Assembly (NCBI GenBank): GCA_010015805.1
Contig: ML978121.1
Location: forward strand, 310,001 to 374,000
DNA: 64,000 nt
Direction: 5' to 3'
Source of the DNA: Rhizodiscina lignyota
Taxonomy: Eukaryota
The notes under the pieces were generated by a model. It was not told where the DNA came from and searched no databases. It saw only the letters and a program-made list of their open reading frames with translations. The translations under genes were made by a program, and so were the position numbers. Of this stretch, positions 58,739 through 59,905 are shown piece after piece (within the stretch, counting starts at the first letter, position 1; every line of letters starts with the position of its first letter).

Positions 58739-59905
58739 ATGGCAGCCAGGAAATTCGGCGGAGAACACTGTACTATCACTGTCATTTCCGGGGGACCCAC
58801 TCCGGAGTACATCTCTAGCATCGAATCCGCTCTCGGCGTACTCTCCCACCGTGGCTCGCTCAGAGCACACTTCCGGCTCGTCCCATGTCTGATCACAAGA
58901 TCCGGTCTCTGGCTTGATGAGTCTACGAGTGAGCTTGCTCTATCGGCCTACAGCTCCGGCGGCCCTGACGCTCTGCAACGCATGGAAGACATCGCATCCT
59001 CTGGTACATCTGTTCCACCATGGCTTGTCGTATCCTCATCCTCGGCCGTATTTCCTACCATTGGCGGCGCTCTGGGTGAAGACGGTGTGATACTCGGCCT
59101 GTGCCGTGCTCTCAACACCCCCTTTGTCGGCTGTGACATTCTCACTAGTGTCATATGTCTAGACAAGTCAGTGTGCAAGTCGGTACTGGAGACCGCCAAC
59201 CTCCCCCAAACGGTACATCTCGCTATTCTCCCATCCGATAGCCCCTACTCGGTATTGGAAAGCAGCCCTTTCCCCTTCCCATGGATCATCAAACCAGCAG
59301 ATGGAGGATGCTCAATCGGCGTCTCACTCATCAACTCACCCCCGGAACTTTCCACCGCTCTTGACAAGGTCCGACAACCCTATCCCGACTCTACCGTTTT
59401 AATCGAACCGGCAGTGCAAGATATGGTCGAGGTCGATGTTGCTGTCATGGAGGACATTTCCGCCACTGGTGACAGAATCGTTATCGTCTCACCCTGTGGT
59501 CTACGGCAGAATTTCCGCCTTGGCGCAGGAAGTTCCGCTAGCAGTAGCAGTGCCTCTTCATCCTCTCAAGGAAAGCAGAATAAGGGAGACGGGCCCTCAT
59601 GGGTGGTCCCAGCTCCAGATGTCCCTAAGGATGTGGTTGTGAAGATGCAAGCATTTGCGAGACAAGCCTTTCGCGCTGTACGGGCGACGGGGTTCATGAG
59701 GGTGGATTTCTTCTATGTCGCGTCGACGGGGGAGATTTTAATCAATGAGATCAATACGATCCCGAACATGTCCAGGGACAGTATGTGGTTTAAGCTGTGG
59801 GCGGGGGCAGGTATCGTGTCGGAGGAGTGGGTGAAGAAGGTGGTGGAGGTGGCGTTGTGGAAGGGCGAGAAGAAGCAGCGAAGCGTTCCTTTAAGCAAGA
59901 TTTAG
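58739..59905 (+). CDS. D-Ala-D-Ala-ligase-like ATP-grasp protein, intronless, divergent
   Basis: SGGPTPEY..S..SA, FP..GG..GEDG, PFVG, CLDK...K, FPWIIKPADGGCSIGV, VLIEP, EVDVAV, MRVDFF and INEINTIP follow the Ddl motif order. Confidence 0.82.
   Translation: MAARKFGGEHCTITVISGGPTPEYISSIESALGVLSHRGSLRAHFRLVPCLITRSGLWLDESTSELALSAYSSGGPDALQRMEDIASSGTSVPPWLVVSSSSAVFPTIGGALGEDGVILGLCRALNTPFVGCDILTSVICLDKSVCKSVLETANLPQTVHLAILPSDSPYSVLESSPFPFPWIIKPADGGCSIGVSLINSPPELSTALDKVRQPYPDSTVLIEPAVQDMVEVDVAVMEDISATGDRIVIVSPCGLRQNFRLGAGSSASSSSASSSSQGKQNKGDGPSWVVPAPDVPKDVVVKMQAFARQAFRAVRATGFMRVDFFYVASTGEILINEINTIPNMSRDSMWFKLWAGAGIVSEEWVKKVVEVALWKGEKKQRSVPLSKI

Follow-up and report, generated by a model that had tools for sequence, protein, structure and literature searches.

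A candidate amide ligase of probable bacterial Ddl descent in the fungus Rhizodiscina lignyota

The ligase gene and its genomic surroundings

We analyzed a 64,000-nucleotide stretch of contig ML978121.1 from R. lignyota (here called the window). Positions 58739 to 59905 of its plus strand encode a Ddl-fold ATP-grasp protein of 388 amino acids (P0001), present in a single copy and requiring no intron. Translation gave 388 codons without a stop, and stops occurred throughout the same frame of the opposite strand. The original prediction of an uninterrupted frame with the motif order of D-Ala-D-Ala ligase (Ddl) was borne out by this translation and by both Pfam domains, Dala_Dala_lig_C (94.9 bits against a cut-off of 24) and Dala_Dala_lig_N (46.6 bits against a cut-off of 34.6). 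Since both scores lie above their cut-offs, the Ddl match is far from chance. All of the motifs quoted in that prediction were located (D142-K143, K185-P186, R321-V-D323, N336-E-I-N339, I108-G-G110, G190-C-S192, the Ser run at residues 265 to 276, and P342-N343). The open frame and its colinearity with 18 homologues suggest that the gene is intronless. P0001 was the sole full match in the 33.4-Mb genome searched; the remaining Dala_Dala_lig_C matches in this genome were weaker ATP-grasp hits.

The GC3 of the ligase frame was 0.60, and that of 13 other frames in the window ranged from 0.48 to 0.73. The host contig is 4.06 Mb long, and the genes surrounding the ligase are fungal. A 39.6-kb contig from a public run, which may represent the source sample, matched positions 52000 to 64000 without a difference. 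Given the fungal neighbors on a contig of this size, the identical public contig, and a GC3 within range, the gene is part of a fungal chromosome and bacterial contamination is unlikely.

The divergent upstream neighbor (56632 to 57423, minus strand) was identified by Pfam and by structure match as an alpha/beta hydrolase of the zearalenone lactonase family, with E values of 7e-119 to 2e-99 against solved zearalenone lactonases. It adjoins an RTA1 gene and a gene resembling fungal transcription factors (a weak Pfam match, below the cut-off), and the three possibly form a small detoxification unit. The convergent downstream neighbor (60172 to 60945, minus strand) is a 2OG-Fe(II) oxygenase (2OG-FeII_Oxy_3) that apparently contains an intron; its upstream boundary was placed by eye and is approximate. 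A CNH/PH-domain gene follows it. Elsewhere in the window, an AtuA-family gene lies at 47871 to 49376 on the minus strand, and positions 20103 to 38485 hold what is, by architecture, a swainsonine-type (SWN) cluster. It comprises a 2,512-aa A-T-KS-AT-KR-T-reductase hybrid, two PhyH-type dioxygenases (28716 and 35553), an NmrA-like reductase (31732), a second Rossmann-like reductase recognized by eye (33376 to 34604), a zinc dehydrogenase, and a pyrroline-5-carboxylate-reductase-like gene. The likeness to the SWN-type gene set described in PMC5473758 is one of architecture, not of sequence orthology. Pfam domains revealed no evident pathway among the genes flanking the ligase in the window, which leaves the natural-product context raised in the original prediction without backing.

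P0001 might nevertheless act in trans on a secondary-metabolite scaffold, as a MysD-like or cluster-tailoring ligase working on a mycosporine or on the product of a nearby cluster. MysD, the mycosporine-glycine amine ligase with which P0001 had been compared, is likewise a Ddl-like enzyme outside the cell wall, and its omega loop governs specificity through the choice of amino acid (PMC11378024). The adjacent 2OG oxygenase also fits such a role, as the fungal E-64 pathway pairs an Fe/2OG oxygenase with an ATP-grasp enzyme (PMC12568646). However, P0001 lies outside any mys cluster, and its neighbors are not mysABC. The sole DHQ-synthase-family match in the genome was the AROM protein (only the best candidates were scored, so absence is not strict); no mycosporine cyclase was therefore found, which argues against a MysD-type role, and the analogy fell away. 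The comparison with MysD is thus one of genomic context, not of sequence. The few fungal ATP-grasp enzymes reported, Cp1B, AnkG, and FsqD, also form amides as stand-alone proteins and are not described as Ddl-derived in the excerpts of PMC12568646. Cp1B, described there as glutathione-synthetase-like in structure, and AnkG belong to a separate glutathione-synthetase-like group with defined pathways, whereas P0001 appears to be Ddl-derived and has no evident cluster. The swainsonine-like cluster, moreover, ends about 20 kb away, and the excerpts of PMC5473758 describe such clusters without a ligase. We consider a tailoring role improbable.

Fold, family, and origin

P0001 scored below the curated cut-offs of all 25 NCBIfam Ddl and Van models listed (of 44 matched). 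For Ddl models, the score and cut-off were 196.5 and 262 bits, 157.5 and 245.65 bits (TIGR01205), and 117.5 and 243 bits. The Van models listed gave 95 to 129 bits against cut-offs of 495 to 775 (VanA, 105 and 775; VanG, 129 and 495; D-Ala-D-Ser, 105 and 520). Foldseek and VIA-align both returned the Ddl of Thermus thermophilus (6u1c) as the top structural match, with a VIA-align Z of 34.0 and an rmsd of 2.2 Å over 309 aligned residues. Eight Ddl/Van chains outranked every other ATP-grasp chain, the best non-Ddl chain having a Z of 21.4. Overall pLDDT of the predicted structure was 81, and it was below 50 at residues 260 to 284. A homodimer model scored 0.88, compared with 0.21 for the best of three controls (run agreement of at least 74%; pLDDT of at least 85). 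In calibration, 20 of 30 solved pairs and 1 of 23 single chains cleared the same bar; the figure was 17 of 29 in eukaryotes and 1 of 7 where there was no older solved relative. Because Ddl dimers have already been solved, the pass may come from model memory. The model suggests that P0001 is probably homodimeric. Taken together, P0001 is a relative of Ddl, probably with Ddl-like chemistry, but it lacks the features that define D-Ala-D-Ala and Van ligases and is best classed as neither.

Three sequence searches and a cluster look-up gathered a family of 25 proteins including P0001, of which 19 have a length of 340 aa or more. Identity in the family is 42 to 73% over shared columns, and a clear gap lies beneath it, with Ddl at about 30% (at best 37% over aligned columns). 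The fungal host is known for two members, P0001 and KAJ9613037.1 of Cladophialophora chaetospira, which is 63% identical to P0001 and lies on a 1.9-Mb contig. The other 23 come from JGI, ENA, Logan, and NCBI, some of them with an automatic Ddl label, and we infer that they are fungal as well. All of the nonfamily hits that carry a species name were bacterial Ddl of about 30% identity. No family member was found among prokaryotes (GTDB, one genome per species, 185,579 species; one short, weak match in 56 stretches) with a search pattern that suits 17 of the 19 rows of family alignment A1 but misses the most basal ones. Among viral contigs, 354 stretches likewise gave none. The 498 plasmid records all fell below 60% identity, the 10 listed being Ddl/Van proteins of 27 to 28%. 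JGI metagenomes gave seven loci in 204 stretches, all distant (20 to 38%) and none in the family, in a scan that must be incomplete, since JGI-derived family members exist. The Atlas clusters listed were 95 to 100% bacterial, which says nothing about small clusters. Among 21 longer hits (21 to 34% identity), no fused form of the family was found, which speaks weakly against the tailoring role considered above. P0308 was tried as a fusion because Pfam gave it a reductase-like hit, but its sequence looks like a bacterial ORF with a frameshift. A search of the open-access literature found no paper on this ligase family, and PMC13634943 names Ddl solely in its reference list. The original prediction had allowed for nesting within a widespread fungal family; the family is small, and at 25 proteins such a widespread family is not supported.

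The family formed a single clade in all five trees, whose content did not extend to MysD, Van, or other fungal Ddl-domain sequences. In the most careful tree (51 rows under a site-mixture model, with a bootstrap that had not settled completely), the family received 100/100 support on a stem of 1.61 changes per column. It fell within an unstarred 17-row clade (91/94) in this tree, which was rooted arbitrarily without an outgroup outside Ddl. The 17-row clade includes eight proteins that share the family's 7-residue spacer between two conserved Glu residues, a spacer seen in 22/22 family proteins, 53/319 comparison proteins (defined below), and Thermus Ddl. One of the eight is near Thermus Ddl, and another is nearest a mostly-Deinococcota Atlas cluster. 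The sister group varied by tree, being P0246 (0.42), the long-branch P0146, the Thermus-like P0265, an unresolved group of P0246, P0097, and P0190, or the 17-row clade. No comparison protein carried more than 8 of the 51 family-diagnostic states (mean, 1.5). A Thermus/Deinococcus-type Ddl as donor is a weak lean, not a result, because the spacer-sharing group was picked post hoc, after an earlier tree had placed P0265 as sister, and other trees gave other sisters.

The best reading of these alignments and trees is that the gene would descend from bacterial Ddl by an old transfer into an ascomycete lineage and have been kept patchily. This agrees with the bacterial origin originally predicted, to which both the named bacterial hits and a long-stemmed clade inside Ddl diversity point. 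Transfers of Ddl domains into fungi have been listed before, including one from Bacteroidetes to Sordariaceae (PMC5169069) and a case in the chytrid Batrachochytrium (PMC5005798). These, too, are bacterial Ddl-domain genes in fungi, but the Sordariaceae gene is more than 45% identical to Bacteroidetes proteins (PMC5169069) and the Batrachochytrium gene carries a methyltransferase annotation (PMC5005798). Among the rows consulted in PMC5169069, none is a Ddl-domain transfer to Chaetothyriales. As neither gene is named among the hits listed, we infer that the R. lignyota transfer was separate from these two events, which are not represented in our trees.

Conserved core and altered substrate pocket

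Residues were compared by counting alignment columns in the 25 family proteins and in 319 other hits of 290 to 460 aa, most of them presumed bacterial; this comparison set excludes every hit outside that length range, as well as 20 near-duplicate members of clusters. All of the motifs below lie on the plus strand. The ATP, Mg, and hinge residues are kept throughout the family, as column counts showed for K143 of the D142-K143 ATP-binding motif (59162 to 59167; 23/23), K185 and E223 (22/22 each), and D323, E337, and N339 (22/22 each). R321-V-D323 (59699 to 59707) retains the oxyanion Arg and the Mg-binding Asp, residue 321 being Arg in 20/22 and Lys in 2/22 members. N336-E337-I-N339-T-I-P-N343 (59744 to 59767) retains the Mg ligands in 22/22, and in P0001 its final Gly has become Asn. 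K143, K185, D323, E337, and N339 lie in the motifs originally read in P0001 as DK, KP, RVD, and NEIN. E23 is kept in 22/22 members and E114 in 23/23; Glu23, in E23-Y-I-S26 (58805 to 58816), is the amine-binding Glu of site 1 (Glu15 in Escherichia coli). Position 348, which we take to bind the acceptor carboxylate in Ddl, is Ser or Cys in 22/23. Apart from Glu15/Arg255 and Ser150/Tyr216, the numbering after E. coli and the roles given to pocket residues here are our own presumed assignments. Glu15 and Arg255 of E. coli Ddl contact the ligand (PMC5717164).

Fifty-four columns are at least 95% invariant in the 319 Ddl-type proteins; of these, 35 persist in 90% or more of the family and 19 do not. 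Family conservation was 0.895 at these columns versus 0.656 at 325 others (columns are not independent), and this higher conservation points, at the protein level, to purifying selection. An intronless frame of bacterial type with a Ser-rich run could also be a decaying pseudogene or a bacterial contaminant of the assembly, and two family proteins (P0012 and P0311) do stop early despite contigs long enough for the whole gene. The conserved catalytic core, the fungal genes on the 4.06-Mb contig, the identical public contig (with the reservation on its source given above), and the 63% identical ortholog on a long contig of another fungus make this explanation extremely unlikely.

Around this conserved core, the substitutions in the substrate pocket are fixed family-wide, in line with the changed pocket originally proposed. 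In the P-loop (K185-P ... G-G-C191-S192; 59291 to 59314), residue 191 is Cys in 22/22 family proteins versus Ser in 319/319 comparison proteins, so the GSS-to-GCS change first noted in P0001 holds throughout. Residue 233 is Asp in 23/23 versus Glu in 311/319, and Q119 is lost in 23/23. Position 26 is small in the family (Ala in 10, Ser in 7, Gly in 4, Cys in 1); it is Val or Ile in Ddl, where we take it to be a pocket residue. The omega-loop region (residues 254 to 293; 59498 to 59617) is replaced by a conserved G-L-R-Q-N-F followed by SSAS and the Ser run (59531 to 59566), and its length exceeds the Ddl median by 12 residues. Its Lys and Tyr are kept in 0/21 family proteins, compared with KY or KF in that segment in 316/319 comparison proteins; one family fragment has KY elsewhere. 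The predicted loss of YxxKY therefore stood. A reading of the Ser run as mere low-complexity drift did not, since the run expands an SSAS/SAAS motif found in 16/25 family proteins. Overall Cys content is higher in the family than in the comparison set (2.2% versus 1.3%), and C122, C140, C146, and C191 are near-invariant in alignment A1.

Two further changes vary within the family. At I108-G109-G110 (59060 to 59068), His is lost in the subclade of P0001; residue 109 is His in 17, Gly in 4, and Cys in 2 family proteins and His in 318/319 comparison proteins. Residue 343 is Ser in 15 and Asn in 7, versus Gly in 318/319. The original prediction of IGG for LHG and PN for PG was correct for P0001 but did not extend to the family, in which 17/23 keep the His and 15/22 read PS. 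The two positions covary: among the 20 members covering both, 14 combine His with Ser and 6 combine the absence of His with Asn. These six are the P0001 clade (Gly, four proteins) and a basal pair (Cys), with His-bearing members between them. The pattern resembles a switch at site 1 with compensation, but it amounts to only two independent events. In the basal pair, P0122 and P0309, the loop has 26 residues versus 42, the oxyanion Arg is replaced by Lys, and the His is replaced by Cys.

The substitutions might be compensated, leaving a D-Ala-D-Ala ligase or a Van-like D-Ala-D-X ligase. The best profile and structure matches of P0001 are all Ddl or Van, and most family members keep the His. With bacterial Ddl (T. 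thermophilus 6u1c and Salmonella DdlA 3i12), P0001 shares the fold (Z of 34), domain order, ATP/Mg residues, site-1 Glu, oxyanion Arg, and predicted dimer, and with Thermus Ddl the 7-residue spacer. Unlike these enzymes, to which it is about 30% identical, it has a P-loop Cys, Asp for Glu233, no Gln119, no lid Lys-Tyr, and a replaced Gly343, and its fungal host lacks peptidoglycan. Van ligases (VanA, VanG, and LmDdl2) have the same fold (Z of 33.0 and 32.8), and their omega loop alters specificity, but P0001 has a different loop and no van context, and it stays far under the model cut-offs. Ser150 and Tyr216 (E. coli numbering) are conserved in D-Ala-D-Ala-only ligases, and changes there alter specificity (PMC7691350). 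Both equivalents are lost in the family. The R. lignyota genome gave a single weak Mur-ligase-domain match (28.1 bits) and, among the best candidates scored, no bacterial-type alanine racemase C domain (0/1, versus 9/14 controls), which argues against a cell-wall-type role. An ordinary Ddl or Van activity is, in our view, quite unlikely.

Three of seven racemase-like matches in the genome were read by eye, and none fits an alanine racemase; we take them to be D-threonine-aldolase-like, D-serine-dehydratase-like, and hydantoin-racemase-like. The same genome has an uninterrupted 373-codon PLP-enzyme frame (L011, 1150 to 2271, minus strand), which is presumably bacterial-type D-threonine aldolase-like and possibly a further transfer linked to D-amino-acid use.

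Proposed activity and significance

We propose that P0001 is probably an active ATP-grasp amide ligase derived from bacterial Ddl, homodimeric as the model suggests, which links a second amine to an amino acid of greater bulk than alanine, with the D form likelier than the L form. As in Ddl, Glu23 would hold the alpha-amino group of the first amino acid. The carboxylate of this substrate would be converted with ATP to an acyl phosphate, which Arg321 would hold, and attack by the second amine would give the amide, with ADP and phosphate as the other products. Ddl is fitted to two alanines by a Ser-Tyr-Glu latch and a Lys-Tyr lid, both of which are gone here, and site 1 would be opened by the change of Val to Ser, Ala, or Gly and, in the P0001 subclade, of His to Gly. 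With latch and lid gone and site 1 open, the enzyme would most likely take a bulkier amino acid together with a larger acceptor. The scaffold would dictate a D-configured first substrate; our guess favors D over L only slightly. Speculatively, Arg256, which is conserved in the new loop, may stand in for the lost lid Lys. The product might serve in detoxification, in storage, or as a small specialized metabolite, which is a guess.

In E. coli DdlB the lid Lys has an important catalytic role, and an enzyme that has lost it could be crippled. P0001 could then be a half-enzyme or pseudoenzyme that binds ATP and an amino acid, or that only phosphorylates or traps a substrate such as a toxic D-amino acid analogue, forming no amide for want of a lid to shield the acyl phosphate. 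The absence of the lid Lys and Tyr in 21/21 members, the changes of the P-loop Ser and the oxyanion Gly in 22/22, and the low model confidence of the replaced loop are consistent with this, and Ddl itself phosphorylates D-cycloserine without ligation (PMC5717164). Glu23, Arg321, Asp323, Glu337, and Asn339 are nevertheless kept, as is Ser or Cys at position 348 in 22/23. Different lids, moreover, are functional in other ATP-grasp ligases. We regard loss of ligation as unlikely and retain the amide ligase as the preferred reading.

A broader proposal, which we hold to be rather doubtful, is that the family constitutes a stand-alone, NRPS-independent fungal means of joining D-amino acids to small amides or peptides. 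It would comprise two specificity classes, one with His and Ser and one without His and with Asn, the latter having arisen twice, and the invariant P-loop Cys, which would lie beside the acyl phosphate, may join the chemistry.

These findings carry limited weight, since transfers of Ddl domains to fungi have been described before, the family has few members, and a product is not indicated by any pathway context. If the proposed activity is correct, a Ddl descendant that lacks the latch and lid and keeps the catalytic core would be a natural test of the role of the omega loop and a candidate biocatalyst for D-amino-acid amides. It would also be a starting point for learning how fungi deal with the D-amino acids of bacterial walls.
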